The notes beneath the pieces were generated by a model, which saw only the letters and a list, made by a program, of their open reading frames with translations, made no database searches and was not told the origin of the DNA. The position numbers were made by a program, and so were the translations under genes. A DNA stretch of 64,000 bases from the NCBI GenBank assembly GCA_049513715.1, contig JBEKVV010000001.1, forward strand, positions 64,001 to 128,000, read 5' to 3'. Of the stretch, positions 40,943 through 60,503 are shown piece by piece; position 1 is the stretch's first letter; each line of letters begins with the position of its first letter. Source of the stretch: Candidatus Bathyarchaeia archaeon (GTDB taxonomy: Archaea; Thermoproteota; Bathyarchaeia; 40CM-2-53-6).

Positions 40943-41074
40943 TTCGAAAGTAACACTTGAAGTCGTCAAATCGCCCTCGCTATCGTGGTCAGCCACTTTA
41001 CGAAACCGTGTAACAAGCGATTTATTCACAGTCTGCAAACTACTAGGTAGAAATTCTGTGAGGAGGGTGTCAAA

Positions 41075-42613
41075 ATAACACAACGCGAACTAGCGCCCAA
41101 GAAGATCACTAGAAATGAACTGAATTCTCTTGTCGATCGAGCTGCTGATCTAATCAGAACGGCTGTAGACTACAAGTTCATTCTCGTTCTGCTCTTCCTG
41201 AAGAGAGTCAATGACTTCTGGAAGACTGAAAGGCGCCAGTACGAGGAACGGCTGTCAAAAGAGGCAAAGATGTCTGGAAAGGAGGCCCAAGAACAAGCGG
41301 AAAAACTCGATTACACATTCAAGATTCCAAAACAGTACCTCTGGGACGAGATAACAAAGGACGTCAAAACTCTACCGGAAAAACTGGGGACAGCGATAAG
41401 CGAGATTGCAAAGGTAAACACCGAACTCCAAGGCGTTATCAACAGAGTCGACTTCTTGGAGTTCGCAAGAAATCAAGAAAACAGAGAACTCTTGAGACAG
41501 CTAGTAGAACTTTTCAACAAATATGACCTGGGGGGCGATGAAGTCTCACCAGACGTTCTTGGCGATGCGTACGAACATATTCTCATGAAATTCGCACCCG
41601 AGCGAGCAAAGGAGGGAGAGATCTACACACCTAGAGAAGTCATCAAACTCATGGTTGAGGCCCTAGATCCGAAACCAGGGGAGAAAGTGTACGATCCTTG
41701 TTGTGGCTCTGGAGGTATGCTCATAATCTCGTATTTGCATGTCCTAGAAAAATACGGAGAGAAGGAAGTCAAGAAGCTTTTCCTCTACGGCCAAGAGAAA
41801 AATCCCGAGATCTACGCAATAGGCGAAATGAACCTGCTGCTGCATGACATCAAAAACGCAAATTTGGAAAATGGTGACACACTTGACTTTCCGAGGTTCG
41901 AAGAAGATGGAAGACTGCAACAGTTCACCGTAGTCATCGCAAACATACCATGGAACCAGGACGGCTACAACGAGGGCCGTCTCAAAGCAGTGAAATTCAA
42001 GGATAGGTTCAGTCTTGGATACCCGCCTCAAAGTTCAGCCGACTGGGCATGGATTCAGCACATGATTGCTTCTACTATGGATGGTGGAAGAGCAGCAGTG
42101 GTGGTCGACAACGGAGCCCTATTCAGAGGTGGCCAAGAAAGAGTTGTAAGAAGCAAGATAGTGGCGAAGGAGAGAGACTGGATTGAGTGTGTCATTCTGC
42201 TTCCCGAAAAGCTCTTCTACAATACCGGAGCCCCGGGGGCAATTGTAGTTTTCAAAAGGAACAAAAAGGACGAAAGGAAAAACAAAATTCTCTTTATCAA
42301 CGCTTCGAACGAGTTCATACAGCATCCATCGATTAGAAGATTGAACACGCTATCTTCGGACAACATGAACAAGATAGTCGAAGCATACAACAACTTCTCC
42401 GAAGTTTCTGGTTTCTCTAGGGTCGTTGACGTCAAAGAGGTTGTCAAGAACGATTACACTCTGAATGTTTCTCTCTACGTGATGCCTGTTGCAGAGGGAG
42501 AACCGGTCAACATCTCTCAAGTGTATTCAGAGTTGAAGGAACTGGAGCAAAGAAGAAACGAACTCAGCAGGCAACTAGATGAGGTATTGACGAAAGTACT
42601 AGAGTTAGAGTAG
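41075..42613 (+). CDS. hsdM: Type I R-M methyltransferase subunit (probable ATA start)
   Basis: AADLIR..DYK..LLFLKR N-domain upstream of the first ATG; GEIYTP, DPCCGSGG, ANIPW. Confidence 0.93.
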   Translation: MTQRELAPKKITRNELNSLVDRAADLIRTAVDYKFILVLLFLKRVNDFWKTERRQYEERLSKEAKMSGKEAQEQAEKLDYTFKIPKQYLWDEITKDVKTLPEKLGTAISEIAKVNTELQGVINRVDFLEFARNQENRELLRQLVELFNKYDLGGDEVSPDVLGDAYEHILMKFAPERAKEGEIYTPREVIKLMVEALDPKPGEKVYDPCCGSGGMLIISYLHVLEKYGEKEVKKLFLYGQEKNPEIYAIGEMNLLLHDIKNANLENGDTLDFPRFEEDGRLQQFTVVIANIPWNQDGYNEGRLKAVKFKDRFSLGYPPQSSADWAWIQHMIASTMDGGRAAVVVDNGALFRGGQERVVRSKIVAKERDWIECVILLPEKLFYNTGAPGAIVVFKRNKKDERKNKILFINASNEFIQHPSIRRLNTLSSDNMNKIVEAYNNFSEVSGFSRVVDVKEVVKNDYTLNVSLYVMPVAEGEPVNISQVYSELKELEQRRNELSRQLDEVLTKVLELE

Positions 42614-42614
42614 C

Positions 42615-43175
42615 ATGGTTCAAGTTTTCTTTCTTGACACCAACGTAATATTGGATTACTTGGAGGGCAGAAACGAAGAAGTAAGAGCGATAGTAGAACG
42701 CCTCATCAACCTGCACAAGAATGGCAGAGTTGTCTTAGCGACCTCGATATTGAATATTGCTGAGTCCATTTACAACGAGCTTGATCTACACTTCGGCAAG
42801 TGGGGTCTTGGCCAGAAGTTCGCTTTCGATGAGATTCGGAAGAAAAGAAAAAACTGGGATTTATTTGCCGATGTTGCAAAGGATAACAACGTGATGGAGA
42901 AAATCCAAGCTTTTGCTTACAAAAACGGAGTAGCCCTATACTCGGTTCCGCCCGAAGTCGAAGAATGTGACCGACTCTACGAGCTGATTTTCAGGCATCA
43001 GTTAGAGTCACAAGACGCTCTTATTGTTGCAGCTGCACTAACGAACAACGCGACCTATTTCCTGTCCGATGATTCTACCTTGATTAAGAAAACCAGTGAC
43101 ATATTGTACGGTTACGACCTTCAAAATGAACAGTCACGTAACGCCTTCCTGAGGGATGTTCTGGAGGCGATTTGA
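42615..43175 (+). CDS. PIN-domain (VapC-like) nuclease inside the hsd operon
   Basis: FLDTNV, AE, QDALIVAAA, LSDD acidic residues. Confidence 0.85.
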   Translation: MVQVFFLDTNVILDYLEGRNEEVRAIVERLINLHKNGRVVLATSILNIAESIYNELDLHFGKWGLGQKFAFDEIRKKRKNWDLFADVAKDNNVMEKIQAFAYKNGVALYSVPPEVEECDRLYELIFRHQLESQDALIVAAALTNNATYFLSDDSTLIKKTSDILYGYDLQNEQSRNAFLRDVLEAI

Positions 43176-44446
43176 AAGTGAAGTCGCTAGCCTTCTACAG
43201 AGAAGAAAATCTCGCGCAAACAGCTATCGGAAGGATACCGAGGGATTGGACTGTTGTTACCATAGGAGAAATCGCTGAAACCATGAGTGGAGGGACTCCA
43301 AGCAGGATAAAGAAGGAATACTATGGCGGAAATATCCCTTGGGTCAAATCTGGAGAACTGAAGGACAATAATATCTACAATACGAGTGAGACCATCACGG
43401 AAGAGGGATTACGAAATTCTTCAGCGAAATTGCTTCGCAAGGGCACATTGCTGGTTGCGTTGTATGGCGCGACCGTCGGAAAGACCGGTATTCTAGGAAT
43501 AGACGCCACGACAAACCAAGCCATCTGTGCAATCACGCCAAAAGAGAATAAGCTTGAGCCCTACTATCTCAAGTATCAAATAATCGCAAGAAGAAACGAG
43601 CTTGTTTCTGCAAGTTCTGGTGGAGCTCAACCAAACATAAGCCAAGGCATCATAAGAGCTGTCAGAATTCCACTGCCAGCATTGGAAGAGCAACATGAGA
43701 TCGCTGAGGTTCTCTCAAACGTCGATCAGACGATTCGCACGACCGATCAAATCATCGCAAAGACGGAACTTCTCAAGAAAACTCTGATGCAGCAGCTTCT
43801 CACGAGGGGAATAGGGCATAAGGAGTTCAGGGATTCTGAGATCGGAAGGATTCCGAAATCTTGGAATGTCTCTAGACTGGGCGATGTCGCAAAAGTAGAG
43901 CGTGGTAAGTTTTCGCACAGGCCTAGAAATGCACCCGAGTTCTATGGTGGGAAGATACCATTCATTCAAACAGGTGATATCGCAAAAACTAAGGGAATTA
44001 TCCGAAACTACTCCCAGACGTTGAACGAAAAAGGGCTGAAGATTAGCAGGCTATTCAAGAAAGGCACGATTGTCGTTTCAATAGCAGGTAATATCGGCGA
44101 CATCGGAATGCTCGGCTTTGATGCGTGTTTTCCTGACAGTGTCGTGGGTATTTCGGCTCATGATGAAATGCATAGCATGTTCCTCATGTACTTGCTCCAG
44201 ATCTATCAACAGGAGCTAAGTGGCAGAGCCCCCCGGAGTACACAGAAAAACATCAATCTACAAATCCTGAAGTCTATCAGAATTCCAGTTCCATCTGCTG
44301 ATGAACAGCGTCAGATTGCTAGCGTTCTTTCAAGCATTGACGGAAAGCTCGAAGTTGAGAGGAACGAGGGAGCAAGTCTGGAAAAGGCCAAGCAAGGACT
44401 AATGAATTTACTTCTTACAGGGAAAATCAGAATCAAGGTAGATTGA
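43172..44446 (+). CDS. hsdS: Type I R-M specificity subunit
   Basis: Two TRDs; IGRIPxxW repeats, GGAQPNI, PxPxxxEQ, KQGLMNLLLTGK. Confidence 0.95.
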   Translation: MKVKSLAFYREENLAQTAIGRIPRDWTVVTIGEIAETMSGGTPSRIKKEYYGGNIPWVKSGELKDNNIYNTSETITEEGLRNSSAKLLRKGTLLVALYGATVGKTGILGIDATTNQAICAITPKENKLEPYYLKYQIIARRNELVSASSGGAQPNISQGIIRAVRIPLPALEEQHEIAEVLSNVDQTIRTTDQIIAKTELLKKTLMQQLLTRGIGHKEFRDSEIGRIPKSWNVSRLGDVAKVERGKFSHRPRNAPEFYGGKIPFIQTGDIAKTKGIIRNYSQTLNEKGLKISRLFKKGTIVVSIAGNIGDIGMLGFDACFPDSVVGISAHDEMHSMFLMYLLQIYQQELSGRAPRSTQKNINLQILKSIRIPVPSADEQRQIASVLSSIDGKLEVERNEGASLEKAKQGLMNLLLTGKIRIKVD

Positions 44447-47400
44447 ATGAGTTATAGTGAAAAGGGCACAGTCGAAGATTTCATCATTCAAGAGCTTCAG
44501 AAACTTGGATGGAAGTTCCTGAACCAGAAGGAAATGGAGGCAAAGCGCAAGGGCAGGCTTGACGAACCGCTGGTTCTGGAAGACCTTAGGATTTCTATTA
44601 GAAAGCTGAATCCCGATATAGATTTCACAGATGCCGACCTTGATTTTGTCGCTGTCTCCCTTAGGACGATGCCATCGAACCTCGAAGGAATCAGGAGATT
44701 TCTTGACATTTTCAGAAATGGCATCGTCGTCCCGATACAGAAGGAGAACAAGGAGAAGGTCGTCGGACTTTTCGACTTAGCTAGCACTGACAACAACGAG
44801 TTTGTTGTTACAAATCAATTCAAGCTTGAAGGCTCGAAAGCCAACATCAGGGCGGACATCATTCTTCTGGTAAACGGCATCCCTCTGGTTTGCATCGAAT
44901 GCAAGAGCCCCACTCAGGAGAATGTAGATTGGACAACCGGTTATACGAAGATAAAGAGATACGAGCGAGACGCACCTGAGCTCTTCAAGTACGTCCAGTA
45001 TTCAATCGCAACCGACGGAATGAAGACGAAATATTTCCCAAACGGCTTCAACGACGAGAGCACAGATTTCATCAGCGAATGGAAAGACCCGCACCCGTTC
45101 AAAGCGTCAGAGTTCAAAGATGACATTTTGAAAGCCACCGTGTACGGGCTACTGTCGAGGTCGAACCTTCTCGACCTCATCGAGAATTTCACTTTCATCA
45201 GGAAAGAGACGGACAAGTCCACCAAGATAATGACTCGCTATATGCAGTTCAGGGCTACGGAGAAGATCTGCAAGCGAGTAATTCAGACTCTGAAAGGCAA
45301 GGAAAACAGCAAGTTCGGTCTGATATGGCACTGGCAGGGTTCCGGTAAGACTTACACTATGGCGTTCACTGCCTGGAAGCTCTACTTTTCCTCTGCAACA
45401 GAAAGGCCGAGCATCTTTGTGCTTGTCGACAGGAAAGACCTGGAGGAGCAGATCGAGAAGGATTTCGGCTTCATCGAGGTGCCGTTGGAGAGAATCCACT
45501 CCATCAGGGAACTCGTCGAAGTCTTGAGGCACGGCAAGGAAGGCAAGAGAGGAGTATTCCTCGTCACGATAGAGAAGTTCAGCCCGAAGGAGTTCAAGGA
45601 ACTTGCGAAAGAAAGCGGCGAGATAGAAATCAAGCGAGAGAATGTGATAGTCCTCGCCGACGAGGTTCACAGGACACAGTACGGCAAGTTCTCGACGCTG
45701 ATGAGACACATTTTCAAGAAAGCGTTCATCTTCGGCTTCACCGGCACGCCTCTCTCGAAGTTGGAGCGCAACACCTTCTCGAAATTCTGCCCCAGAGGCG
45801 AACTCTACCTCGACAGGTACTCGATGCTTGATGCCCTAAAAGACGGTTTCACAGTCGAACTTTCCTACCAGCCGAAGCTCCCTGAGTATCACCTGAATGA
45901 GAAGCAATACAAACAGTTTGTCAAGTTCGAGGAGGAAGAAATCAAGACTCTGTCCAAAGTGGAGCAGAAGGAACTCAGAAAGAAGATCAGGGTAATCACT
46001 GCATTTGTGAAGAAGCCGGAACGAGTGAGCGCAATCACTGCCGACATAGCCCAGCATTTCAAGGATGTCGTCGAACCGACTGACCTCAAGGCTATGGTCG
46101 TTACAATTGACAGGGATGCGTGCGTCCAATACAAGACCGCACTGGATAAGGCCCTTCCGCCGGATTTCTCCGAAATAGTGATGACATTCACTCCTGACGA
46201 CAAGCAAGACATCAGGTCATACTTTGACAAGCTGTGCGAGAAGTACGGCACCAAGGACATGAAGGACATTCACGACAAGATTATTGACAGCTTCAAGACG
46301 GGCAAACAGCCGAAAATCCTCATCGTCACTGACATGCTGATAACGGGCTTCGACGCCCCAGTCCTCTGGACGATGTACCTCGACAAACCGCTGAAAGAGC
46401 ATAGAGTTCTCCAAGCCATAGCAAGGACGAACAGGCCGTTCTTAAACAAGAAATTCGGTTTGATTGAAGATTACATTGGAGTCCTAGCGGAACTTCAGAA
46501 GGCGTTCCAGAAGTTCGAGGCAAGCGACGCGAAAGACTTGCGTGTTGTCATAAGACAGCTTGACAAGGAAAAGGAAGAATTCAAGGGCCTCCTTCAGAAA
46601 GCGCTGAGAATTTTCGAATCGGTAAAGAAAGAGGACACCCGTGAAAGTCTAGAGAGTGCGATGGACGTTCTGGTCAATCCGGAGACGGCAAAACAGTTCG
46701 AAGCGGTCATGCGGTCGCTCATGAAATCCTATGAAATGCTCAGAGGCGAGGCGTTTCTGGCTCCATACCTGTCGGACTATACTTGGCTCACCAAGATGCT
46801 CGTAGCCTATAACAAGCGCTTCAAGAAGAAGGACGTGGACGAGCTCAAGATACAGGAATTATCAAGGAAGACATATCAGCTCATACAGCAGACTATTGAC
46901 GTAAAAGAGATCGAAGATACATACCCAACTCTAAGCATCAACGCCGAGTATGTGGAGGCGCTCAAGAAATCGAAACCCAAGACAATGGGCGCCGCAATCG
47001 ACGTCATTGCTGACATCCGGCACGAGGCGAGCATCCATCCGAGTTCGCCTTTCTTCCTCAACCTAAGCAGAGAAATCGAGACGGCTTACGAAGACCTCAG
47101 GACGAAAAAGGTCGACATAGAGGAGGCCGTACACAAAGCCATCGATTTCTCTGAGAAAATCGCCGCCTGGAAGACGGAAGAGAACGAGATAGGGAAGGAC
47201 AAATATCCGCTCTACGAGGCCGTGAAGACAGTACTGCCTGACGTCGAAAAACAGAAGGCGGTCTCATTTGTCAACCGTCTCACAGAGCACCTGCAGGAAC
47301 TGGGTTTGCTCTTCGAAGGCTGGCAACTGCAGAGAGACGTACGCCGGAAAGTAAAATCCGAGACAAGATTCCTCCTCCTGTCTGACTACAAGGAACACCA

Positions 47401-47458
47401 TGACAAGATAGACGAACTCACCGAGCAACTGTTCGGAGCAATGGAGGGAATGCAATGA
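44447..47458 (+). CDS. hsdR: Type I R-M restriction subunit
   Basis: ADIILLVNGIPLVCIECK, WHWQGSGKT, DEVHR, FTGTP, MLITGFDAP, QAIARTNR. Confidence 0.96.
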   Translation: MSYSEKGTVEDFIIQELQKLGWKFLNQKEMEAKRKGRLDEPLVLEDLRISIRKLNPDIDFTDADLDFVAVSLRTMPSNLEGIRRFLDIFRNGIVVPIQKENKEKVVGLFDLASTDNNEFVVTNQFKLEGSKANIRADIILLVNGIPLVCIECKSPTQENVDWTTGYTKIKRYERDAPELFKYVQYSIATDGMKTKYFPNGFNDESTDFISEWKDPHPFKASEFKDDILKATVYGLLSRSNLLDLIENFTFIRKETDKSTKIMTRYMQFRATEKICKRVIQTLKGKENSKFGLIWHWQGSGKTYTMAFTAWKLYFSSATERPSIFVLVDRKDLEEQIEKDFGFIEVPLERIHSIRELVEVLRHGKEGKRGVFLVTIEKFSPKEFKELAKESGEIEIKRENVIVLADEVHRTQYGKFSTLMRHIFKKAFIFGFTGTPLSKLERNTFSKFCPRGELYLDRYSMLDALKDGFTVELSYQPKLPEYHLNEKQYKQFVKFEEEEIKTLSKVEQKELRKKIRVITAFVKKPERVSAITADIAQHFKDVVEPTDLKAMVVTIDRDACVQYKTALDKALPPDFSEIVMTFTPDDKQDIRSYFDKLCEKYGTKDMKDIHDKIIDSFKTGKQPKILIVTDMLITGFDAPVLWTMYLDKPLKEHRVLQAIARTNRPFLNKKFGLIEDYIGVLAELQKAFQKFEASDAKDLRVVIRQLDKEKEEFKGLLQKALRIFESVKKEDTRESLESAMDVLVNPETAKQFEAVMRSLMKSYEMLRGEAFLAPYLSDYTWLTKMLVAYNKRFKKKDVDELKIQELSRKTYQLIQQTIDVKEIEDTYPTLSINAEYVEALKKSKPKTMGAAIDVIADIRHEASIHPSSPFFLNLSREIETAYEDLRTKKVDIEEAVHKAIDFSEKIAAWKTEENEIGKDKYPLYEAVKTVLPDVEKQKAVSFVNRLTEHLQELGLLFEGWQLQRDVRRKVKSETRFLLLSDYKEHHDKIDELTEQLFGAMEGMQ

Positions 47459-47832
47459 AGAGGACAATCGAAACCACCGATGACCCTCAGATTGAGGCGC
47501 TATATTCGAGACTTTCCAACGTTTATGATCAGATACGAAAAGAGAGAAGAGTCGAAGTTTTCGGCACGCTTGATTTCGAGGTCGTCAAAAGCATAGATGG
47601 CAAGAAACAGAGAATTGCAAAACTCAAAGGAAACAAGATATTAGTTCACATAAAGGCAAGGAGATTGCCGAAGAATGCTCTCAGATATATCATCGCCCAT
47701 GAAATCGCACACACGCTCACAAAGCGACACACAAAGAGATTTTGGAAAGTCGTCGGAGCAATTTACCCGACGTATGAAACGGGACAGAGCCTTCTCATGA
47801 AATATGGCAGTGAAGTTAGCTTTCCAGATTAG
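47455..47832 (+). CDS. YgjP/M48-like zinc metallopeptidase associated with type I R-M
   Basis: YIIAHEIAH..HTKRFW. Confidence 0.85.
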   Translation: MKRTIETTDDPQIEALYSRLSNVYDQIRKERRVEVFGTLDFEVVKSIDGKKQRIAKLKGNKILVHIKARRLPKNALRYIIAHEIAHTLTKRHTKRFWKVVGAIYPTYETGQSLLMKYGSEVSFPD

Positions 47833-48315
47833 TATCGCTAAATCATTGATTTGCTTGAGTTACTCTCGACTTGTGCCGACGACTTGCCGCACTTAGCTGA
47901 TCCACTCTCACCAGGGAATACATTCACGGGTAACATGAAAGCGCTTGGATCTCCTCAGACGATTTTCGAAATATGGCCCATACTCCACATACCTCCTAAC
48001 GGAAATCGGGAATCCAAGAAACTCCTAACGTTCGAATCCGCTCCATCTCTGTCGATCCGTGCGTAGAAAGACTGAAGAGTTACCCCTTTGTCATCGTGGC
48101 TTGCCAATTCAGGTCGTGCAGAATCCTTGACAGCTGCTGGGAATCCTAGTCTCGGTGCAACATCTACCTTCATCTACCTTCTAACTTCCAGCCCGTCAGC
48201 ACGGATTCGACACTAAAATTCCTGAATTGTGTACAGGGACTTGATGAGACTCGTTCCATCAACCAGTCGCTTTGCCCATAAGCAGATTACAAATAGTGAA
48301 GAGATCTATTATCAG

Positions 48316-49149
48316 ATGAAGAGAGCAAGACCGATAATGGCTCAGCAAGCACAACTTATCAACCGGTTGAATGACCTCAGTGGCAAAGAATGGATGCTAT
48401 TTACGAAGTCATGGTTCATTCTGAATCCATCTCCGAGAGGTCTTAAGGCATTACACCCGGCCTGCTACCCAGAAGAACTGGCATCGGCCTTCATCCAGTT
48501 TTTCACTAAAAGGGATGACTGGATCCTTGACCCTTTCCTCGGATCGGGCACCACTCTTGTCGCGGCTAAGCGGGCGGGACGAAATTCGGTGGGGATAGAG
48601 GTTTACAAGAAATATGCTCAACTCACGAAAGATCGGCTATCACAGATCGATGGTAACGGCACAAAGAGTCAAGTCTATGCGGGAGATTCAAGAAACATAA
48701 CATCAATCTTCAAAGCGAACAAACTGCCGTTCATAGACTTCTGTCTCACTTCGCCACCCTATTGGAATCAACTGCGACAGAATCACAGAAGACAAAGATC
48801 GAGAACAGAAATGGGCTTGTCGACTAGCTATGGAAAGTCAAAGCTCGACCTAGCCAACATTGATGACTATGATGAGTTCCTTCGAGCTGTCGTAGGTATC
48901 TTTGACGGTGTCCACAATGTAATGGCGAAAAACTCCTATCTCGTATTAGTTTGCAACAACGTATATCGTAATGGAAGAGTCTTCCCGCTGGCGTATGATC
49001 TGTTTCGTATGCTATCAAAAAAATGGATACCGAAAGACGAGCGCATTTGGTGTCAGGACAATAAGTCACTTTATCCATTTGGAATCTATTGCGCATGGGT
49101 AGCAAACCGTTGTCATCATTACTGTTTTGTTTTCAAGAGGGCTGACTGA
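48316..49149 (+). CDS. Orphan amino-DNA methyltransferase (probably m4C)
   Basis: HPACYP, LDPFLGSGTT (motif I) precedes TSPPYW (motif IV); start could be 48229 or 48337. Confidence 0.9.
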   Translation: MKRARPIMAQQAQLINRLNDLSGKEWMLFTKSWFILNPSPRGLKALHPACYPEELASAFIQFFTKRDDWILDPFLGSGTTLVAAKRAGRNSVGIEVYKKYAQLTKDRLSQIDGNGTKSQVYAGDSRNITSIFKANKLPFIDFCLTSPPYWNQLRQNHRRQRSRTEMGLSTSYGKSKLDLANIDDYDEFLRAVVGIFDGVHNVMAKNSYLVLVCNNVYRNGRVFPLAYDLFRMLSKKWIPKDERIWCQDNKSLYPFGIYCAWVANRCHHYCFVFKRAD

Positions 49150-49868
49150 TCTCCCATCTTGATGCCAATCTGCCCGTCTCTTTTTCCGCCCTTATGAGGC
49201 GGAAGGTTCATCACCAGAGTCATGACGACGTCATGCTCTATTTCATCAAGTCTCTTTGATAAGAGGCTTCCAATGGTCGAGTACGGCATCTCGATCGCAA
49301 TGGCACTAATTGTGCCATCGACTACTGATAGTTTGCTAAGTCTGACAGGTCGGGCAAGATCGAGTCTGAAGTTCCTCATTTCCTCGCTATTTTCATTTGA
49401 AACCCAGAGAATCTCTCCGACTAATTTGCGTGTCACTTTGTTGGCATAGAGGCTTCGCTCGATGGGTGTCTGAATAGTCAAAGTGACCTCGTTTATGGAC
49501 TCCTGTTTGAAGAAACCCTTGTCTTTTAGCTTGATAGTCTTGACTTTTCTCTTACGTGAGGTAATCACTTCAAAGTGATCATCGGCTAAGTCAGTTTCAA
49601 TTCCTCCTGGAGGTGTGTATTGTATTAGGATGTCAGCATTCAACGGTGGTTCGTAGAGTTTCAAACGCTGATATGGAAAAAGCCGTGTTCCCCAGTTTAA
49701 GGCACATTTTAGCACCTGTATTCTACGAAGAGTAAAATCGTCTATGTAGACGTCCTGATCCGAGTTGGTAGACTTTGGTTTTTCATATGCAGCGTATCCC
49801 AACCAGCCGACAATGGCCGTACCAATAATGCCGACAATACCGATCATAATGGATGTGACATCTGTCAA
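49119..49868 (-). CDS. N-terminally membrane-anchored beta-rich protein
   Basis: Single TM (IMIGIVGIIGTAIVGWLGY) then soluble domain; third gene of a minus-strand operon. Confidence 0.7.
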   Translation of the reverse strand: MTDVTSIMIGIVGIIGTAIVGWLGYAAYEKPKSTNSDQDVYIDDFTLRRIQVLKCALNWGTRLFPYQRLKLYEPPLNADILIQYTPPGGIETDLADDHFEVITSRKRKVKTIKLKDKGFFKQESINEVTLTIQTPIERSLYANKVTRKLVGEILWVSNENSEEMRNFRLDLARPVRLSKLSVVDGTISAIAIEMPYSTIGSLLSKRLDEIEHDVVMTLVMNLPPHKGGKRDGQIGIKMGDQSALLKTKQ

Positions 49869-49891
49869 TCTATGTCTACTCGAAGCATGGT

Positions 49892-51154
49892 TCAGCGAAA
49901 ACCTTCACGAGTGATTACGTGCTTCACATAATCAGCGTCGATAGTCGCACGTGTGTCTGATGCCAGGTTTTCTATACACAGTCTGCAGAGTGTCACCACT
50001 TTAGAAACCGTTCCCTTGGTTGTCGAGAAGATCTCGTCCAACGCGGCTATTGTGAATGGGAAGATCGAGGCTTCGATGGTCGAACGTGTATCGGTAGTCT
50101 CAGACTTCTTTGCAGAGCCAGATATCCTCGATGTCAACAAATAGCGCTGAACTAGTTCAAGAACTTCTTTCTTGCTGAACGGCGCTAAATCGATTACTGA
50201 ACCAGCGAGCCGCCTTTCAAGCGCACTCGGTACCTCAGTGAGTTCCTCCCATTCAGCAGGTGTTATTGCAAACATGATTGCGAGGCCGCCCGGGTTACCG
50301 TCTATGAGATGACGGAGAGCATCCTGGTAGAGCCCTCTTGACATTCGGGTTATCAGGGTGATTGCTTCTAACTCATCGATTAGAACAACCAATCCCGAGA
50401 GTCCAATCACGTGAAGTAGCTTGAGAAATGCGTTTAGGGCCCGCTCTGCAATAGATTGGTCATCGATAGTCGAATCTATTCCAAGTGTCTTATGTTCGTC
50501 TCGCGAGAGAGATGAACCGACAAACCAACGCCATGCTATGGAACCAAGCTCAGGGTGTGGCAGAATCAGAAAGGCTCTAACCAAGTCTGGATTCTTGGCT
50601 GCCGCAAGACGAGGCAGCATATCATTTACCAACTCCAGTGATCTCGCGATGCTTAGATATTTCGGAACATCCGAGTAACTATTCAAGACGTACGACTGTT
50701 TTTGAGCAAGGTACTTCTGAGTTTCTGCTTTCGAGAGATTCTGAAATATCCAGCGAACCGCAAGATCTGTCAGCAATTCTCGTCCGAGATCGTCAACTAT
50801 GTATAGGAAAAGATCCCGCATGCTTCTCCCAGGAGACTTGGCGTAGATGGCTAGTGCAGGGTTGTCTCCTGTCGAGAGTTTTCTATTTACGCTTAGTTTG
50901 AAAAGCTTAAGCAGATGGCTCTTTCCTGACCCATAATCGCCTAACAGAACAGTCACAGAGCTGGAATTATCAGTGCGCAATACTGTAAGAACATCAAGAA
51001 AACGTCTAATGGCAGCCTGTCTATCTGCAGTTGTAAGCGGTAAATCGGAGGGAACTGCTGTAGAGGGAAATGGGTTCCTGGTCAAGAGCAGTTTTGAATA
51101 GTTCTTCTTCTGAAGATTACTGAGATCTATGAAACCTTGCTCATCCAGACTCAA
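49892..51154 (-). CDS. P-loop ATPase, BrxD/DUF2791-like
   Basis: NPF, GDYGSGKSHLL, AWRWFVG, VLIDELE, ALERRL. Confidence 0.75.
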   Translation of the reverse strand: MSLDEQGFIDLSNLQKKNYSKLLLTRNPFPSTAVPSDLPLTTADRQAAIRRFLDVLTVLRTDNSSSVTVLLGDYGSGKSHLLKLFKLSVNRKLSTGDNPALAIYAKSPGRSMRDLFLYIVDDLGRELLTDLAVRWIFQNLSKAETQKYLAQKQSYVLNSYSDVPKYLSIARSLELVNDMLPRLAAAKNPDLVRAFLILPHPELGSIAWRWFVGSSLSRDEHKTLGIDSTIDDQSIAERALNAFLKLLHVIGLSGLVVLIDELEAITLITRMSRGLYQDALRHLIDGNPGGLAIMFAITPAEWEELTEVPSALERRLAGSVIDLAPFSKKEVLELVQRYLLTSRISGSAKKSETTDTRSTIEASIFPFTIAALDEIFSTTKGTVSKVVTLCRLCIENLASDTRATIDADYVKHVITREGFR

Positions 51155-51990
51155 CTGCTCAACCTCAAGGAAAGATATGCATACCGTCGCTTGTGGTAAC
51201 GGAAGCCTCTGAAGTCACTTTCGCTCTGTGGCGGAGCACCGTGAAGATAGATAGCATTGCCAACTTTACTGTTCACTGTTTTCTCGAGATAGGCGTCAAA
51301 AAGTTCCGGAGAATCCAAACCGAGATCCAAGGACACAGCATCCCTCAGTGTATCTATTGAAGCGTATATCAAAGGCGCGGTTCGGGTTGATTTGTCTTGG
51401 ATATCAGAATAGGCACGAGTCAAAGCAGAGTAGAATTCGGGAATGCTCACAAATGTCTTTGTAGGCCCTGATTTTACAACTCCGCCATAGCTAACCGCTA
51501 ACCCTGCCTCAACACAAAACGCGATAAGTGTCTTCGCGGGAACCTCCTTGAACTCCTTTTGTATATCTTGCAGTTCTCTTGACACATCAGTATACTCAAG
51601 AAACCTCTTGAAAAGAGGCCCCTTATCGTCATTGCTCAGAATCAATCCCTTCAAATATCGTCTGTAAGTTTTCTTCTTTGAAATATCATCCTTCACCCCA
51701 CAGATTTTCTCACAAAGTGGAGTTATCCTATACTTGTGAGTGGGTCGGTCAACTTCTTTGATGAGTTTGAATATATTGGCGGTGTAAAAGTAAGTGTCTC
51801 TGGTTTTTACATGTATGTGGCCCTTCTTGGTTAATGAGGCTAATACTTGTCGGTACTCCTCTGCGTCGAACCTTCGCTCCGCCATCGCACATAGCGATGC
51901 GAAGAACTTCTGTACATCGTCAACGAGCATCAAGCCCTCCCTAGAACGTCCATATTTCGTATGTCTCAAATTCAGTAACTCCCGCGTCAC
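51151..51990 (-). CDS. Basic protein with probable winged-helix domains
   Basis: FKLIKEV..YRITPL and EAGLAV wing-like segments; 4-nt overlap with the ATPase start. Confidence 0.6.
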   Translation of the reverse strand: MTRELLNLRHTKYGRSREGLMLVDDVQKFFASLCAMAERRFDAEEYRQVLASLTKKGHIHVKTRDTYFYTANIFKLIKEVDRPTHKYRITPLCEKICGVKDDISKKKTYRRYLKGLILSNDDKGPLFKRFLEYTDVSRELQDIQKEFKEVPAKTLIAFCVEAGLAVSYGGVVKSGPTKTFVSIPEFYSALTRAYSDIQDKSTRTAPLIYASIDTLRDAVSLDLGLDSPELFDAYLEKTVNSKVGNAIYLHGAPPQSESDFRGFRYHKRRYAYLSLRLSS

Positions 51991-52325
51991 CTAGCTCCAG
52001 GAGTACAGCCGCACTGCACAATATGCAAGAAAGATATTGTGGATTAATATCTACATAAGAATTGACTACACCAGACGTATGTGTAGGTCGTCTTACATAT
52101 GTAACGCCCTCTCGCGGCCAGCCTAAAGCGCAGGAAGAGCAATGGAACAGAGTCAATCTGACAAGGATCGCTGTACTAGTGAGAGAGAGCTGGTGCGCAC
52201 ACACACAAAATGAGTGGTTCAGACTTAGGAGCCCGTCCGTATTGTTGTAAGTCGGCATGCAACCGTTCGGGCCCGCTGGACAGATTTCTGGCCCGCTTTT
52301 ATACCTTGTGAAGTATGAGAAGTAA

Positions 52326-52601
52326 GTGAAAGTCGTGGCGAAGCGGATACTGGTCCTCGACGAGGGGGTGCCCGGAGATCAGAAAGGTCGGCGCGAATGG
52401 CGGGTGCATCAACATCACCCTGCGGCAGAGTGGTGCGGCGATCTCGGCATCGCGCAGGGGGACTATGTCGTCCTGTGGCGAGGAGTCTACGAGGGCACAA
52501 AGTACGGGTCAGTTGTGGTTATCCAGAAGCTGAACGCCGGGGCCGCGCACCGTGACGGCCGGCAAACCCAAACTCAGGTGAAGGTTGGGGCGAGTGGCTG
52601 A
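52326..52601 (+). CDS. AbrB-like small protein
   Basis: PAAEWCGDLGIAQGDYVVL. Confidence 0.5.
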   Translation: MKVVAKRILVLDEGVPGDQKGRREWRVHQHHPAAEWCGDLGIAQGDYVVLWRGVYEGTKYGSVVVIQKLNAGAAHRDGRQTQTQVKVGASG

Positions 52602-53502
52602 CCAACGCAAAGTTACAACGAGCCTCGTCACTACCATCTACGATGACCTGAAGTCGCTGGCCGATGAGCGCGGGCTTTCCGTCGCCGCGATGCTCCGGCA
52701 ACTGACAGTGATGGGAGTCGCCGAGGAGAAGACGCCTGTGATGCCGCTCGGAATCGAGGCTGGCTTCGGGCCTCCACATCTTTACTTCTTCGGCACTACC
52801 GGCCAGGGCAAGTCAACCGTCATCGACGAGTACGTGATCCCACGCCTCGGACGCGGACGGCGGACGGTTGTCTTGACCGACAGCAGCGACGACATCAGGA
52901 AGATCTACCGTGACGCGTTCAAGGTAGTCCCCCTCGCTTCGAGCCGGAAGTTTCCGTCATTCGACAACGAACGCTACGAGGAGATCAAGGCACTGCAGGC
53001 CGAACCGGAGTTTGAGGCGGAGGTCAGCGGGGCGATTAATGCCGTGATGGCCTCAAGACATCGGAAGATCATCGTCGCGGTTAATGCGCCTGACAAAAGG
53101 GCGAAGAAGTGGCTTGTGAACTCCTTCATAACGGAGGTAGTCGGCCGCGATTGGGGCAACCCCGGACTGCTCTTCGTCGTCGAGGACGCCCACAAATACG
53201 ACTGCGAGGAGCTAGTCGGCAGCGGCCGAAAGAACGGCATAGTTGCTATCCTCGCCGGCGTCAAGGAGCCCGACGAAGACACCTCGCGGAACACTCGCCT
53301 CGTCCTCGGCCCAGTCGGAACCGCCACGGCAAGCCGAATCGACCCGACAATCGCGGCGATGGCGAAGAGGCTCGGATGCGGAGAATTCCTCTGGCAGTAC
53401 TCGGCGGGGCGCTGGGCGAGGTTCAAGCACAAGAAACGCGGAGTGTCGAAGCAAAGAACCGGCCGAGAGCCCACGCCTCAGAATAGCGGGAACCCAAGGT
53501 AA
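52585..53502 (+). CDS. RHH-fused HerA/FtsK-superfamily ATPase
   Basis: VTTSL..YDDLKSLADERGLSVAAMLR; HLYFFGTTGQGKS, VVEDAH, GRKNG. Confidence 0.7.
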   Translation: MGRVADQRKVTTSLVTTIYDDLKSLADERGLSVAAMLRQLTVMGVAEEKTPVMPLGIEAGFGPPHLYFFGTTGQGKSTVIDEYVIPRLGRGRRTVVLTDSSDDIRKIYRDAFKVVPLASSRKFPSFDNERYEEIKALQAEPEFEAEVSGAINAVMASRHRKIIVAVNAPDKRAKKWLVNSFITEVVGRDWGNPGLLFVVEDAHKYDCEELVGSGRKNGIVAILAGVKEPDEDTSRNTRLVLGPVGTATASRIDPTIAAMAKRLGCGEFLWQYSAGRWARFKHKKRGVSKQRTGREPTPQNSGNPR

Positions 53503-53754
53503 TTCCGCGCATATCAGACCTTTTTTCTTCGGTTCGTTTAGCTATAAGAAACTTGACGACACTTCAGTCTGCGCCGCCAAACAGGTTCGACAACAGTCAG
53601 GAATATTCGTTGGAGCAACGTCCACAGGATGGATGTGAGAGAGACTTAGCCCTGCCAAGAAAACTCCTACAGATTGAGACAAATCGCGTGTGATCAGAAT
53701 GTTGCGCTCAACTTAATTTGCTTCTTCAACTTCAACGTGAGGTGAGGAGAGCGA

Positions 53755-54918
53755 TTGCCACCAGCCATTAGTCAGCGACCGGTTAATGAGAAATTGGATG
53801 CACTCACCAAGGCATTACTTCAAGCAATGGCCGCTGACATAAGTGACGATTTAAGCATCAAAGTAATTCTTTACGGGCAGTCAATCGACAACGTTCTTTC
53901 TGCTCTAATCCCGAAAAGTACGCATGACCATAATGCTAAAGTCCAACAATTCAAGGCGCTTTTCCCCGCTTATGCAAAACTAGAAGACCTTGACAAAGCG
54001 AAAAATCTGTGGATGAATAGACGGTATGGCAGTTCTGAACCCCCGGGGAGCGATTTTGGAATCCAAGCCTTGTGCACAGACCTGTTGGACTTTGCTGTCA
54101 AGACGATGGCCGCAGAAAGGAAATGTGCCCAGACAGTGCTGTGGGCCGAGGTAGCAACTAGAGCAGAGCTAATCTATTCACATTCCATCCGGCAATGGAG
54201 GCCTGATACGATTCCTGGCTACATTGACTTTGACGCATTCAGATTCATTGGGAAGATTAGAGAAGATTGTAGGCGTCGGGGCCTCGCGGGGGAATATGAC
54301 TTGGGAACCATATCTGGACTGATCCATGTTCAGCTGTTTGGTTTGCCTGAAGTATCGACGATGACAGAACTTGAGCGGGCGCGCTTTTCAAACACATTCG
54401 GAAAATTGCGCCGAGATTTCGACGAGTTGGTTGGATTAAGAGACCGCATCGAATATCGAAATGTAACCGCTCATGAAGTTAGGTCGGAAAGTGATCTCTC
54501 AATGTGGGTTCTCAAACGAGGCCTGGCTGCAGACGTCAACTCAGCGAAAGACGAGGATATTCACAGAATCGGATTGGTGATAACTCCTTCTCCACGAGCA
54601 ATGGATAGCTTTGCTGGAAGGATTGAGAATCTGCTCAACGACCTGTGGGGAGACTTTCCATTGGACAAAGTGAAGGAGGCGCTGGAAGGTGAGGCTTTGG
54701 GAAAAGAAAACCTTGTTTGGATGCAAAAATGCGATGGTGTTAGGGCACCCTTCCTAGGTTTACGTGATGTGGCGCAATTCTATGTGAGAAGAGAACTCAC
54801 AGCAGAGGAACTAGACCGTCTAAGGGGATGGGATTGGTTCGTTGTCAGGGCAGGCACTGATGGCTCAGAGCGACTAAAAAGATTCATGGACGAGGCACGA
54901 AAGTCTCGGCTGGGCTGA
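53755..54918 (+). CDS. Hypothetical protein with HEPN-like N-terminus
   Basis: QSIDNVLSAL..KSTHDH..NRRYG pattern; SD GAGGTGA. Confidence 0.5.
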   Translation: MPPAISQRPVNEKLDALTKALLQAMAADISDDLSIKVILYGQSIDNVLSALIPKSTHDHNAKVQQFKALFPAYAKLEDLDKAKNLWMNRRYGSSEPPGSDFGIQALCTDLLDFAVKTMAAERKCAQTVLWAEVATRAELIYSHSIRQWRPDTIPGYIDFDAFRFIGKIREDCRRRGLAGEYDLGTISGLIHVQLFGLPEVSTMTELERARFSNTFGKLRRDFDELVGLRDRIEYRNVTAHEVRSESDLSMWVLKRGLAADVNSAKDEDIHRIGLVITPSPRAMDSFAGRIENLLNDLWGDFPLDKVKEALEGEALGKENLVWMQKCDGVRAPFLGLRDVAQFYVRRELTAEELDRLRGWDWFVVRAGTDGSERLKRFMDEARKSRLG

Positions 54919-54957
54919 CGATGACTACTAACAACTCGCAACACATATGTCCAAACG

Positions 54958-55638
54958 ATGCCCTATCACAATGGACGGCAATTGTCGAGTACGGAAGTCA
55001 AGAGGGCGGCGCGGGTAGTTTTCGAGAAGTTCAAGAGCATTCAAGATTTGCAGCAACGAGAGTCAGGCCCCAATCTATTGAGCCCACGGAGTTTCGTGCA
55101 AATCAACCATGATGTTGCGCAAGAAGCCTTCCATATCCTAGAACTACGAAACCTGCTAATGAGAGCCTTGGATCAGGAGTCGTTATATCAATTGACCAGC
55201 CTGGGTAACTCGACTAATGTCGATGATATTTTTGAGAAGACAGTAGACCGAGCCTTCATCTCGAAAATCTCAGAAATCCTAGACGGTGAGCTGAATCGTG
55301 CTTGCCTTGACAAGTCCTACGAAGACGCCATCACATCGGCTTTCCGCATCCTTGAAGTGCGCGTAAGGACTAGGATCAACGCCGGCGCCGACCGCATTGG
55401 AACGGATCTGATGGACGACGCCTTCCACCCTGAAAGGGGAAAGCTGGTTTTTGGAGAGACTGCCTCTGAGAGACAAGCGGTTCATCAAGTGTTTCGGTCA
55501 GCCTACATGATGCTCCGGAACCCACCTTCTCATCGATATCTACAGGAGTTTGCAGGCGCCGAGATAGTTGAGATCGTCATGTTTGTTGACTTCCTGTTGA
55601 AGATCCTGAGAAAGGCGACGGACAGAGCACCGAACTGA
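54958..55638 (+). CDS. TIGR02391 (Ymh-like) HEPN-type protein
   Basis: YEDAITSAFRILEVRVR, GTDLMDDAF, RNPPSH (Rx4H). Confidence 0.8.
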   Translation: MPYHNGRQLSSTEVKRAARVVFEKFKSIQDLQQRESGPNLLSPRSFVQINHDVAQEAFHILELRNLLMRALDQESLYQLTSLGNSTNVDDIFEKTVDRAFISKISEILDGELNRACLDKSYEDAITSAFRILEVRVRTRINAGADRIGTDLMDDAFHPERGKLVFGETASERQAVHQVFRSAYMMLRNPPSHRYLQEFAGAEIVEIVMFVDFLLKILRKATDRAPN

Positions 55639-55733
55639 AAAATCACTACGATTGAATAGTCCTTCCACCTAGTCAATGGATCCCAGGTTCTCTTTGATCA
55701 ATTCCTCGATTTCAGAAATCTCTTACTTGGTTT

Positions 55734-56432
55734 CTAGACCATCAAGAACTTGCGATAGCCATCAATCTCGGGGACACCATAAGTTGCCTTTTGGTTGTCT
55801 CTGAATTGCTTCTCTTCTTTTCTGGGTAATAGTCTGTTCCTGCGTGTTTCAAGATATCGCGCACGGATTTCAATCGGACCATGGATGAAATCCGTGTCTA
55901 TCGGTGTCGAATCCCTAGGCGAAATTTTGGTCTTTGTAATGGAGCACTTTATTCGAATTGTTTCCGATGAATTACCTTGAAGAGAAACTACGAGGGGGGC
56001 CTGAACTGCGTCCTCTGTTTCAAATCTAAAGTTGAAGAGGCAAGATTCTTCTCCGACTTTACTTTTGGCTCTAAAGCGCGGATCTGGATTCAACAACTCC
56101 AGTTTTAGTTGGCTAATAGCCCCGCTCTTGGAGCTCCGGTTCAGTAGGAGTAGACTAAGAGTGAAGAAGATTGCAACTTCCATCCTTCCAGCTGCTCTGT
56201 CGAGTTGCGATGTCAAGTAGTGTGGTCCAACATACGCTAACCTTTCGTCAGCAAAATACAGTTTCAGATCAGGGCCTCTAATCGACTCCCGCAGCTGTAA
56301 GCCAGCAATGGTTGCTGCCACCACGGTGAAAAAGGCGATTATCAGATTTGAGTAGGAGTCGAGTATGTCCACAAGTCCTTTTAGAACACTCAAGAAATCT
56401 ACTACTGGCAAATTCAAGTCAATCGATCTCAT
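55734..56432 (-). CDS. N-terminally membrane-anchored Ig-like protein
   Basis: LIIAFFTVVAATIAGL TM, GPDLKL, LLNRSSKSGAI. Confidence 0.6.
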   Translation of the reverse strand: MRSIDLNLPVVDFLSVLKGLVDILDSYSNLIIAFFTVVAATIAGLQLRESIRGPDLKLYFADERLAYVGPHYLTSQLDRAAGRMEVAIFFTLSLLLLNRSSKSGAISQLKLELLNPDPRFRAKSKVGEESCLFNFRFETEDAVQAPLVVSLQGNSSETIRIKCSITKTKISPRDSTPIDTDFIHGPIEIRARYLETRRNRLLPRKEEKQFRDNQKATYGVPEIDGYRKFLMV

Positions 56433-57360
56433 GCTTGAGTGTCTAATGGTCTGGACTCTCAGATTTGAACCGTCGTTATGGAGTTTTTGCGTGCGCGCCA
56501 CTCGACTCAGGCACATCGGACTATGGATGCAAAAGCTCGTCTGCTTTGGCTAGATAATCAGGGCAACGTGGCGTCCGCAGTGAAAATGACCGAAGCGCCT
56601 GATATTGAAGCGTTTAGCGTTACAGCCAGAGACCGCGATGACGATAAACTATGTGTGGTAGAACATCCAACACAAAACTCTGATCGGAAAGTGTAGTCAA
56701 TCGACCTGTTACTCACCAATCGTGGCGATTACGCGCATTTTCGGGCATTCGAATTCGTGATTGCGGGCCTATACGTTCGTTGGGAGGAGCCGAAAGGGCC
56801 AAGGTACTTCGACATGGTCTACTATCGCTCTTCTAGCTTGCGTCTCGCAACTTAGCGATGTCTCCGATGGATCCTAGTCGACATGAATGGCGGCGAGAGA
56901 CAACGCGAGCGAGTCTTGCGACACCGAAGAACGCTGAGTTCAGCGACGCCACTACTCGCCGGTTGCCCCGATCGGATACAGACAGTAGCGCTCAGCTTTA
57001 GCCTCTTACAGGTCTGCTGTTAGCGCATCCACTCTCCACATTTAGTATTAAAAGACGGGAGGAATTTTCGCATCTGTGATTTGGGACAGCGAGGCGCAAA
57101 CTGTTCAACTCATTTGTGTCTCTACCGACATTTGGGGGCGGCCGCCTGAAATTTGGGCCGGGTTGGGGATGGAGCGGTAGCGGCCTAGGGCTGAAAGTGA
57201 AAGGGATTGGAAAGTGGGGGCCGCTGCCGAAACAAAGGGCAGTGGGTTGCGAAAGCGAAACAGAGCCAAAGGGTCAAAGCGGAGAGGGGGCTGGTCTGTC
57301 TGCTGCTATTATAGCAGCGATGGCCAAGATAAACAAAGCGCCAAAAAAGGGGATAAAGGG

Positions 57361-57567
57361 TCAGCCGCGACGGCCGGCTCTTCTGGACTTCTCGTAAGAT
57401 TTCAACAGTCGGCGGAGTTTCTTCAAGTCTTCCTCGATCGTCGGCATGTTCTGCCTGGCCCGCGTCACCATCGCCCGCATGCTGCTCGTTCGTTCGCCGT
57501 CCTTGCTCACGTATTCGTCTATCTGGTTCCGTTCAGTTTCCGTCAGGATACGCGTGTACATTCGCAT
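57361..57567 (-). CDS. Small basic helical protein, possible regulator
   Basis: ORF flanked by two related palindromes. Confidence 0.5.
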   Translation of the reverse strand: MRMYTRILTETERNQIDEYVSKDGERTSSMRAMVTRARQNMPTIEEDLKKLRRLLKSYEKSRRAGRRG

Positions 57568-57706
57568 TCACAGTCCAGTCGTACCGCTACAGCCACAGCA
57601 ACGTTTATTTCTGCCGCTTCTGATATAACAGCACGTCTGCTGCTGTGACAGCAGCACACTTATCCATCCAAAACGAGGGAGAAAGAAAGAGGAGGCGAGC
57701 CAGAAG

Positions 57707-58555: not shown

Positions 58556-58766
58556 TTGCGGGAGGTGACTTGACCTGTTCAGAAATAGGGTTGGTCTGGC
58601 CGGCGTCGGCGCCGTAATCGCGGGGGTATGGCTTCTCTGCTTCGCGGTTGCTTCGGCAATCGTGTCCGCGTACCAGTCGGCCTACTGGCCTGCCTTCTAC
58701 GCGATGGCTGTCGGAGCTTCCCTCGTTTCTTCCGGCACGGTGTTGGCCAGAACGTTCAGGTAGGGG

Positions 58767-59012
58767 CTACTTGTTCGGCCCCCCCAGACTTGGCCCGATG
58801 GCTCTGGGGTTTTGGAGCCACCGCATGGCTGCCTTCTTGGTTTTGAACTCCTCGACAAAACAGTCAGATGTGGTGTTGTCCACGCCAACCAACCATCGGC
58901 CCTCCTTGGTTAAGTACAGCGCTCGATAGCGCTCCAGCTCCCACCACTCGCTGTGCCCAAGTAGGCGGTGAATGAACCGCTCCGAGACCCGTCTGACTAT
59001 TCGTTTCTTCAA
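58767..59012 (-). CDS. Small hypothetical protein
   Basis: SD GGAGGTGA upstream; same-strand run with DUF932. Confidence 0.55.
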   Translation of the reverse strand: MKKRIVRRVSERFIHRLLGHSEWWELERYRALYLTKEGRWLVGVDNTTSDCFVEEFKTKKAAMRWLQNPRAIGPSLGGPNK

Positions 59013-59048
59013 AGTTTTTTCACCTCCTTCCCGCAGGAATCGGAGCGC

Positions 59049-60274: not shown

Positions 60275-60503
60275 TTCGGCTCCACCTCCACACTCGTTTC
60301 TTCGCAGTCGTTCGTTCGGTCGGATGGGACGCGGCTTGTACTAGCAGCCTCCCAAATTCTCGATTCATTCATTTCCCAAACACCTCCTTGGTGCGGGCGG
60401 TCAGCGTTCACAAAATTTCGTTTGTCCGGCAGAGCTTCCGCTGACCAGAGGAAGCCTGCACGGTTTTAGGAATTAGCGTGAAACGATCGTCTATCTCGGC
60501 TAC

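Follow-up and report, generated by a model that had tools for sequence, protein, structure and literature searches.

The window analysed here is a stretch of 64,000 nucleotides from a Candidatus Bathyarchaeia archaeon (GCA_049513715.1, contig JBEKVV010000001.1, positions 64,001 to 128,000; G000:C1:64001-128000 in our genome set, the source genome G000 being 99.4% complete). Our subject is a four-gene cassette within it (Table 1), consisting of a DNA methyltransferase (MTase) and, converging on it from the minus strand, the genes for a triple winged-helix (wHTH) protein, an AAA+ ATPase and a candidate membrane protein. A preliminary description, made from the sequence alone, had read the three minus-strand genes as an operon that overlaps the MTase directly behind a type I restriction-modification (R-M) locus, and all of its coordinates were confirmed. 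The wHTH and ATPase open reading frames (ORFs) share 4 nt (51151-51154), a 23-nt gap (49869-49891) separates the ATPase gene from the membrane-protein gene, and the latter and the convergent MTase overlap by 31 nt (49119-49149). The type I locus, hsdM-PIN-hsdS-hsdR-YgjP in a Pfam scan, lies ahead of the cassette on the plus strand at 41270-47832. Two of the starts are ambiguous: the MTase may begin at 48229 (GTG) or at 48316 or 48337 (both ATG), and the wHTH gene at 51990 (GTG) or 51930 (ATG). The ATG at 51930 is the start in the database protein and is preceded by a purine-rich stretch, and residues 1-18 of the structural model are disordered.

Table 1. The cassette and the element around it, in window coordinates.
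Feature	Position	Strand	Basis
Amino-DNA methyltransferase (MTase), SPPY type	48316..49149	+	PF01555, PADLOC MTase_II
249-aa candidate membrane protein	49119..49868	-	Hydropathy, AF2 model, homologues in the same position in G680
Predicted single transmembrane segment of the 249-aa protein (residues 4-22), then a basic K/R-P-K motif	49803..49859	-	Kyte-Doolittle, alignment
420-aa BrxD/SngB-like AAA+ ATPase	49892..51154	-	PF10923, PADLOC, motifs
Triple winged-helix (wHTH) protein, 279 aa (259 aa if ATG 51930)	51151..51990	-	AF2 model, fold matches
Probable integrated element carrying the cassette and type I R-M, ~30 kb	30647..60632		Repeat boxes

The wHTH protein matched no Pfam or NCBIfam family at E≤0.05, and PADLOC gave only a 35-residue match (E 0.032). 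Its AF2 model (pLDDT 87.6, pTM 0.82) consists of three winged helices end to end, numbered wHTH1 to wHTH3 below. In a VIA fold search over 48,161 chains, which barely probed wHTH3, the best match was FokI (Z 10.9, 156 residues aligned, root-mean-square deviation 3.2, residues 12-177 lying on FokI 5-270), followed among others by N.BspD6I (Z 10.0) and, among the matches spanning two domains, by the binding domain of BpuJI (Z 8.6). Foldseek agreed weakly (FokI E 1.3e-3, SspB E 0.058). Because single-domain regulators follow within about 1 Z, the FokI match is to be taken as a fold assignment and not as proof of descent; on this model, wHTH1 and wHTH2 appear to resemble the recognition domains of type IIS enzymes. 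A sequence search of the PDB returned nothing at E<0.1, and the nearest clusters in an atlas search were unnamed (0.93-0.95), the nearest named one, DpdG (0.80), being a mere lead. The near-invariant columns among 52 relatives are structural and include no conserved acidic or histidine catalytic set. As modelled, therefore, we take the protein to be a triple wHTH of the recognition type that lacks a nuclease domain, and not the ordinary restriction enzyme that 51151-51990 might have encoded. The statement that the cassette holds no clear PD-(D/E)xK or HNH nuclease was borne out by the profile searches, the model and the conserved columns together, and the hidden nuclease supposed in the preliminary description finds no support in the conserved residues.

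The ATPase matched the Pfam family BrxC_BrxD (PF10923) at E 4.6e-15 and 55.9 bits and, with similarly weak scores in PADLOC, SngB (1.9e-10) and BrxD (1.5e-9). Against the NCBIfam BrxD model it reached 37 bits, the cut-off being 350, and a BrxC match in the cassette was seen only over the P-loop at E 0.003-0.04. The Walker A (72-79) and Walker B (258-263) motifs and an arginine pair (314-315) are intact, no domain is fused to them, and these motifs are invariant or nearly so in sets of 24 and 74 relatives. Its profile matched 612 representatives at E≤0.001 and 66 at 1e-30; the sole sequence match in the PDB was TnsC (E 0.0016), and phage records yielded 0 matches. Passages of PMC12839542 place BrxD in the ORC/Cdc6 clade and describe it as uncharacterised. 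By these similarities the protein is assigned as a stand-alone BrxD/SngB-like AAA+ ATPase of the ORC/Cdc6 clade.

The 249-aa protein belongs to no Pfam or NCBIfam family at E≤0.05 and to none in PADLOC, had no usable atlas match, and in Foldseek gave only weak beta-sandwich matches, none at E≤0.001. The hydrophobic window at residues 4-22 scores 2.03 on the Kyte-Doolittle scale (2.13 and 2.18 in the homologues). An AF2 model built from only 3 sequences (mean pLDDT 60.7) has a helix at 4-29 and beta strands at 32-170, with pLDDT about 70-90 over residues 30-140 and <50 beyond 161, and the last 90 residues are not modelled. The predicted protein thus has one N-terminal membrane helix, oriented N-out/C-in, followed by an Ig-like beta-sandwich. 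Since the hydropathy scan also flagged buried helices of the wHTH protein and the ATPase, it is the position and conservation of the helix that support the membrane call.

The MTase (277 aa) matched PF01555 in two stretches (E 2.8e-29) and MTase_II in PADLOC (E 1.6e-37), MTase_II models being the best 25 of its 70 PADLOC matches. Counted from 48316, motif I (DPFLGSGTT) stands at residue 72 and the SPPY motif (motif IV) at 146. Because motif I precedes SPPY, the enzyme is, judged by its motifs, circularly permuted relative to the beta-class Pfam model, and the beta-class label was ruled out by the same order. The SPPY motif suggests N4-cytosine methylation, and N4-cytosine is the likely target predicted for this enzyme. 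Among k-mers, G000 avoids CTCGAG (0.69), GATC (0.75) and CCWGG (0.75), which is not attributable to the cassette MTase.

The four genes recur together. Genome G680, from another family, holds two complete copies (C11 and C13) with the same order and convergent geometry, at identities of 53/30% for the wHTH protein, 58/36% for the ATPase, 38/30% for the membrane protein in the same position and 53/53% for the MTase. Co-occurrence elsewhere, on which the preliminary description had staked its proposal, was thus found at 2 further loci, both in G680. Neither copy has a type I R-M locus beside it in the stretches examined, and the cassette's association with type I R-M is therefore incidental. In a quick tree of the ATPases, with long branches for G299, G228 and G488, the cassette and the two G680 ATPases grouped in a single 14-row set that excluded the G468 and TGT-linked sets. 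Overall, the genes are spread thinly: the ATPase alignment found 7 of 401 genomes in a class-wide search at E≤1e-20 and none of the 22 other genomes of the genus, and the close wHTH profile found 1 of 401 genomes of the phylum. Scans with the wHTH alignment gave three loci in metagenomes and one in genomes, two of these being identical to the window, and 0 confirmed matches among viral contigs.

We then considered the reader-ATPase pair, that is, the wHTH protein and its adjoining ATPase. A wHTH profile iterated without supervision from 10 close relatives over 874 ORFs recovered genes beside more distant ATPases. After removal of two duplicate records, 36 distinct ATPase ORFs were counted in genomes at E<1e-10, and 17 of them have a wHTH-family gene within 1.5 kb; the other 19 are at contig ends, more distant or SngB-like, and some of them stand beside wHTH-like genes outside the profile's reach. 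On haloarchaeal plasmids the pair was present in all six loci opened, out of 10 plasmid matches. This makes 23 pair loci in total, a count that is descriptive and not a test, because selection of most loci by their ATPase inflates the pairing and related loci are not independent of one another. A DNA-marking gene lies near 19 of the 23: an MTase at 7, DpdA at 11 and an SspD-like PAPS reductase at 1 (G468). The seven MTases are of the window's clade at G000, G680 (twice) and G299, about 415 aa long at G558 and G487, and Dam-like D12 at G690. One further locus, on a 4.9-kb contig, has only a TGT.

The co-oriented third gene varies around this constant pair. It encodes a Csa1/Cas4 nuclease at four loci (G299, where it is split in two frames, G799, G558 and G487), SIR2 at one (G690), a second TGT at 11, and a membrane protein at three, possibly four. 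The possible fourth is G468, whose third gene matched the 3-member membrane profile at E 0.013 only and has no ATG, GTG or TTG before its membrane stretch; by sequence it shares the layout, with homology of the membrane protein not established. Seven aligned copies of the second TGT retain the DS and DSxD-region aspartates. A TGT is normally a base-inserting enzyme, and the second copy might act either as an effector that excises bases or as another writer.

Several of these loci merit description in their own right. At the Csa1/Cas4 loci (L146, L149, L151, L058) a solo Csa1/Cas4 gene stands in an operon with the wHTH and ATPase genes, with a methylase at 3 of 4 and an Mrr gene upstream at G299. 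At L150:6636-10847 (G690:C50) the order SIR2, wHTH, ATPase converges on the Dam-like D12 methylase, and HerA and ABC-ATPase genes adjoin. At L051:6983-13014 (G228:C6) the wHTH and ATPase genes converge on CARF-HEPN, a second ATPase and a HEPN-motif gene, with no marking gene in 19.5 kb. Archaeal dpdA islands, on haloarchaeal plasmids (L062-L067) and elsewhere (L048, L052, L053, L141, L142), carry a conserved trio of second TGT, wHTH and ATPase genes. At G402 (L049:1-4350, G402:C65) a membrane-fused ATPase adjoins a membrane/bactofilin-like protein ending in wHTH3, and a glycosyltransferase, an arrangement in which the module appears to be reused outside DNA defence. Finally, proteins of 153-169 aa weakly like wHTH3 lie beside 612-614-aa ATPases at three loci (L059-L061); in one family, 15 of 17 genomes conserve this pair next to a THUMP tRNA methylase, and it looks housekeeping. 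Since wHTH3 alone accompanies ATPases at G402 and, by weak likeness, at L059-L061, it seems to be the part that docks the ATPase, with which it stays throughout the family.

Evidence on the role of the trio came from the MTase clade. The cassette MTase is 50-53% identical to the two MTases of G680 and that of G299, and the clade is present in 42 of the 401 genomes of the class, including 22/22 of one sister genus, in which the ATPase occurs in only 2 genomes, at places unlinked to the MTase. None of the 21 other loci of the clade that were opened has a wHTH, ATPase or membrane partner adjoining. Seven are solitary beside rpoH, five are solitary elsewhere, six stand beside nuclease-motif genes and three beside UvrD-PDDEXK. 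The six neighbours carry D-x-E-x-K / GQ-x-x-x-Y, a PD-(D/E)xK-type motif read from the alignment, with no library match. The clade thus needs no wHTH-ATPase pair, and since it occurs alone or beside restriction-type nucleases at 21/21 loci without the trio, the trio fills the restriction slot. That it occupies the place where the clade otherwise has a restriction partner is our main argument for enforcement over help with marking. The word orphan, earlier applied to the MTase, is wrong, as the enzyme is the cognate partner of the cassette.

Three observations on this clade stand apart from the cassette. The seven loci at which it is a fixed solitary gene beside rpoH (L099, L100, L105-L108, L110) can be read as a domesticated housekeeping methylase. 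The six nuclease-motif neighbours (L098, L109, L111, L102, L101, L084) form two gene families joining the nuclease motif to a helix-turn-helix, with no Pfam or PADLOC match above cut-off, and are probably unannotated type II restriction enzymes. Profile comparisons of the wHTH protein with the C-terminal halves of these restriction-enzyme-like partners were not significant (probability 0.6% and 4.8%), so no direct descent from them is claimed. At L104, L113 and L117, two in Bathyarchaeia genomes and one on a Haloferax plasmid, a methylase is joined by a UvrD-PDDEXK helicase-nuclease and an unknown 410-460-aa gene.

Taken together, these results lead us to favour, with moderate confidence, an R-M-like defence whose reader would recognise sites lacking methylation and load the ATPase there, with the membrane protein then set off as an abortive effector. 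The MTase would mark host DNA by methylation, and wHTH1 and wHTH2 would bind the same site on incoming viral or plasmid DNA when it is unmethylated. wHTH3 would recruit the ATPase, which would oligomerise on DNA in an ATP-dependent manner and activate the third protein; TnsC and ORC/Cdc6 form ATP-dependent oligomers on DNA. In place of a nuclease, the one-helix membrane protein would cluster into a leak and arrest the infected cell, and the third proteins of the sister systems would cut DNA or destroy NAD. Nucleases, NADases and RNases are standard defence effectors. A similar division of roles had been drawn in the preliminary description: it gains comparative support from the sister loci with Csa1 or SIR2 in the effector position, while defence itself, the sensing of unmodified sites and the membrane effector are parts that we still infer. 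The patchy spread (0/22 in the genus, 7/401 in the class) and the location of the cassette, next to a type I R-M locus within an element, favour defence.

Several facts weigh on the other side. The full set was found at only 3 loci in 2 genomes, and one wHTH locus (L034) has no ATPase. The pairing counts carry the selection bias noted above, and the FokI match stands only about 1 Z above single-domain regulators. The membrane protein has no family and a half-confident model, its effector role is a prediction, and similar beta proteins with a single helix are also seen as loose cargo, for example at 55734-56516. The commonest third gene, at 11 of the 23 loci, is a TGT, and this suits a helper in modification no less than an effector. 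Finally, since three of the 23 (G799, G228 and G402) lack a marking gene in the stretches examined and the membrane-fused version at G402 stands beside a glycosyltransferase, the module is not confined to DNA marking.

We weighed four other explanations. It is unlikely, though the most serious of them, that the wHTH-ATPase pair itself restricts by nicking or blocking foreign DNA, leaving the membrane protein to act as anchor, sensor of entry or accessory. SspB, which reportedly nicks or blocks foreign DNA, is among the fold matches of the wHTH protein (E 0.058); most pair loci have no membrane gene, and at G402 a membrane anchor is fused to the pair. However, the 52 relatives conserve no acidic or histidine catalytic set, and because sister loci recruit a separate nuclease, the pair probably does not cut.

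A rather lower probability attaches to the proposal that the pair, in the manner of SspB-SspC or DndD-DndE, helps the marking enzyme by scanning and is not a restriction unit. It fits the TGT loci best, 11 of which have the pair and a TGT in one operon with no DpdB annotated, and the marking gene at 19 of 23 loci speaks for it as well. It also matches the helper role proposed for SspB-SspC in passages of PMC10853773, according to which such cores recruit different modifications. Nevertheless, the MTase clade does without the pair at 21/21 other loci and throughout the sister genus, where the ATPase is rare and unlinked; the MTase and the trio lie on opposite strands; and SIR2, Csa1 and HEPN partners are not modification enzymes.

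More improbable again is a role in maintaining the element, either as an addiction module or as an origin-binding wHTH protein with a Cdc6-like initiator tethered to the membrane, the MTase providing a timing mark. In its favour are the cassette's place on what is probably an integrated element, a Rep gene immediately upstream at G680:C13, and an ATPase of the ORC/Cdc6 type without a winged helix of its own. Yet the element has its own Prim-Pol, other copies lie among chromosomal genes, and the partner genes are defence effectors, although addiction and defence are compatible. Very improbable, lastly, is a Metis-like mechanism in which the membrane protein senses methylated mononucleotides from a virus-degraded host genome: Metis joins methylases to NAD-cleaving or membrane effectors, the same effector range, but an ATPase or winged-helix component has 0 occurrences in the accessible text of bioRxiv 10.1101/2025.11.05.686725, and searches of the cassette revealed no MisA, MisB-type or PUA-like reader domain.

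Beyond the defence reading of the cassette itself, we suggest tentatively that the pair lies at the centre of a family for self/non-self discrimination, unnamed and mainly archaeal, in which mark and effector are swappable. The marks would be methylation by several kinds of methylase, 7-deazaguanine or the product of a PAPS reductase, and the effectors Csa1, SIR2, TGT or a membrane protein. The window would then hold a nuclease-free member that answers a lack of methylation with membrane-based arrest of the cell, and in the Dpd islands the second TGT would be a base-excising restriction effector. If true, an R-M-like system that arrests or kills instead of cutting would bridge R-M and abortive infection, and it would be the smallest setting for learning the role of a BrxD-type ATPase. 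One reader-motor pair with methyl, deazaguanine and probably sulfur marks makes the question of whether triple-wHTH/AAA+ cores write or enforce a mark testable by part swapping, and the haloarchaeal plasmid versions sit in culturable, genetically tractable hosts.

As to its surroundings, the cassette is probably cargo of the 30-kb integrated element, because two pairs of repeat boxes (19 nt at 30647/60504 and 18 nt at 30757/60615, each found exactly twice in the genome) enclose it together with a Prim-Pol gene (34067-36181), a DUF932 gene (59432-60274; both from the Pfam scan) and an integrase-like ORF. This ORF (30834-32330) has no Pfam integrase match, and we read it from a motif as a putative tyrosine integrase. 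In an empty-site comparison with G648 and G601 the likeness to the window ends at 30212, and since the portions compared did not contain the right flank, the boundaries rest on the repeats. No tRNA or Rfam match was obtained at the element ends at default settings; an intron-mode tRNA-Ser call at 60547-60746 is doubtful. Just before hsdM lie two unknown genes with a 4-nt overlap (39363-40942; 306 and 220 aa), with no family above cut-off. The frame of hsdM (41270-42613) is open upstream of the first ATG and its HsdM_N match lacks the first 52 profile positions, which suggests a non-standard start or 5' damage, and a PIN gene (42615-43175) stands between hsdM and hsdS. Further cargo at 53755-56516 comprises a 387-aa unknown, a Ymh/TIGR02391-like gene and the membrane protein with one helix and a beta domain at 55734-56516.

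We also compared the cassette with known systems. The claim that it is not canonical BREX, for want of PglX, PglZ and BrxHI, was upheld: PglZ (PF08665) has 0 matches in G000 (2 of 14 named genomes matched as a control), no helicase such as BrxHI occurs among the 12 neighbour proteins scanned, and by PADLOC and NCBIfam the cassette has no PglX/PglXI, PAPS reductase or BrxC, its MTase being 277 aa long with MTase_II models as the best 25 of 70 matches, and BrxC appearing only over the P-loop. The likeness to type 2 BREX is the weak BrxD similarity of the ATPase, with a score far below cut-off, and that to Shango is its weak SngB similarity, with no SngA (TerB) or SngC (helicase) among the same 12 proteins; PglW, too, is missing from the cassette. 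The BRC system requires PglZ and HerA (PMC12839542). Profiles detect no SspD, SspC or SspB in the cassette, an SspD-like gene occurring only at the sister locus G468. The Dpd islands of archaea share the reader-ATPase pair, which at most sister loci is accompanied by a second TGT next to dpdA; the cassette, whose mark would be methylation, has no dpdA, TGT or que gene, and only a 52-residue match (E 0.024) was seen, in 39363-40283. With the type IIS enzymes FokI, BpuJI and N.BspD6I it shares the recognition-domain fold and a cognate amino-methylase (as predicted), whereas an ATPase and a membrane protein stand in place of the PD-(D/E)xK domain; no profile of an endonuclease domain (PD-(D/E)xK, HNH, GIY-YIG, PLD) matched in the cassette. 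By membership, it is thus not BREX, Shango, Ssp, Dpd or type II R-M.

The closest relatives are architectural. SspBCD and BREX BrxA-BrxC, as described in passages of PMC10853773 and PMC12839542, likewise combine a FokI-like triple wHTH, an ORC/Cdc6-type ATPase and a DNA-marking enzyme, and the cassette has both the three winged helices with a FokI-like N-terminal pair and the adjacent intact ATPase of this module (FokI/SspB/BrxA/DndG-like triple wHTH with ORC/Cdc6 AAA+). By contrast, its ATPase, at 420 aa, is a short BrxD-type protein that stands alone and is not SspC/BrxC, its third gene encodes a membrane protein, and it has no match to SspB, BrxA or DUF4007 profiles and no PglZ, iSTAND or SspE. 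Also near are the mobile Orc/CDC6 operons with a DndG-like triple wHTH and a REase-ASCH effector, proposed to act against invaders (Rakesh, Aravind, Krishnan 2024, PMC10853773); that effector, a REase fused to a modified-DNA reader, is unlike anything in the cassette, and the passages name no version with a cognate methylase, membrane protein, SIR2, Csa1 or TGT. The passages of PMC10853773 and PMC12839542, whose supplements may list such neighbourhoods, name neither the cassette nor its Csa1, SIR2, TGT2 and membrane versions, and the accessible text of bioRxiv 10.1101/2025.11.05.686725 and 10.1101/2025.09.30.679545 describes no such system. Passages of PMC5704561 note solo Cas4 beside R-M genes, without the reader-ATPase architecture. 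A literature search, with most subscription journals outside its reach, found no description of the cassette. The earlier view of an undescribed system therefore holds in part: Pfam, NCBIfam, PADLOC and PglZ searches match it to no named system, but the triple wHTH with an ORC/Cdc6-type ATPase is a described theme, which leaves the cassette less isolated than supposed. Overall, the cassette is real and conserved, carries no name in the libraries searched, and has a broader modular family behind it.

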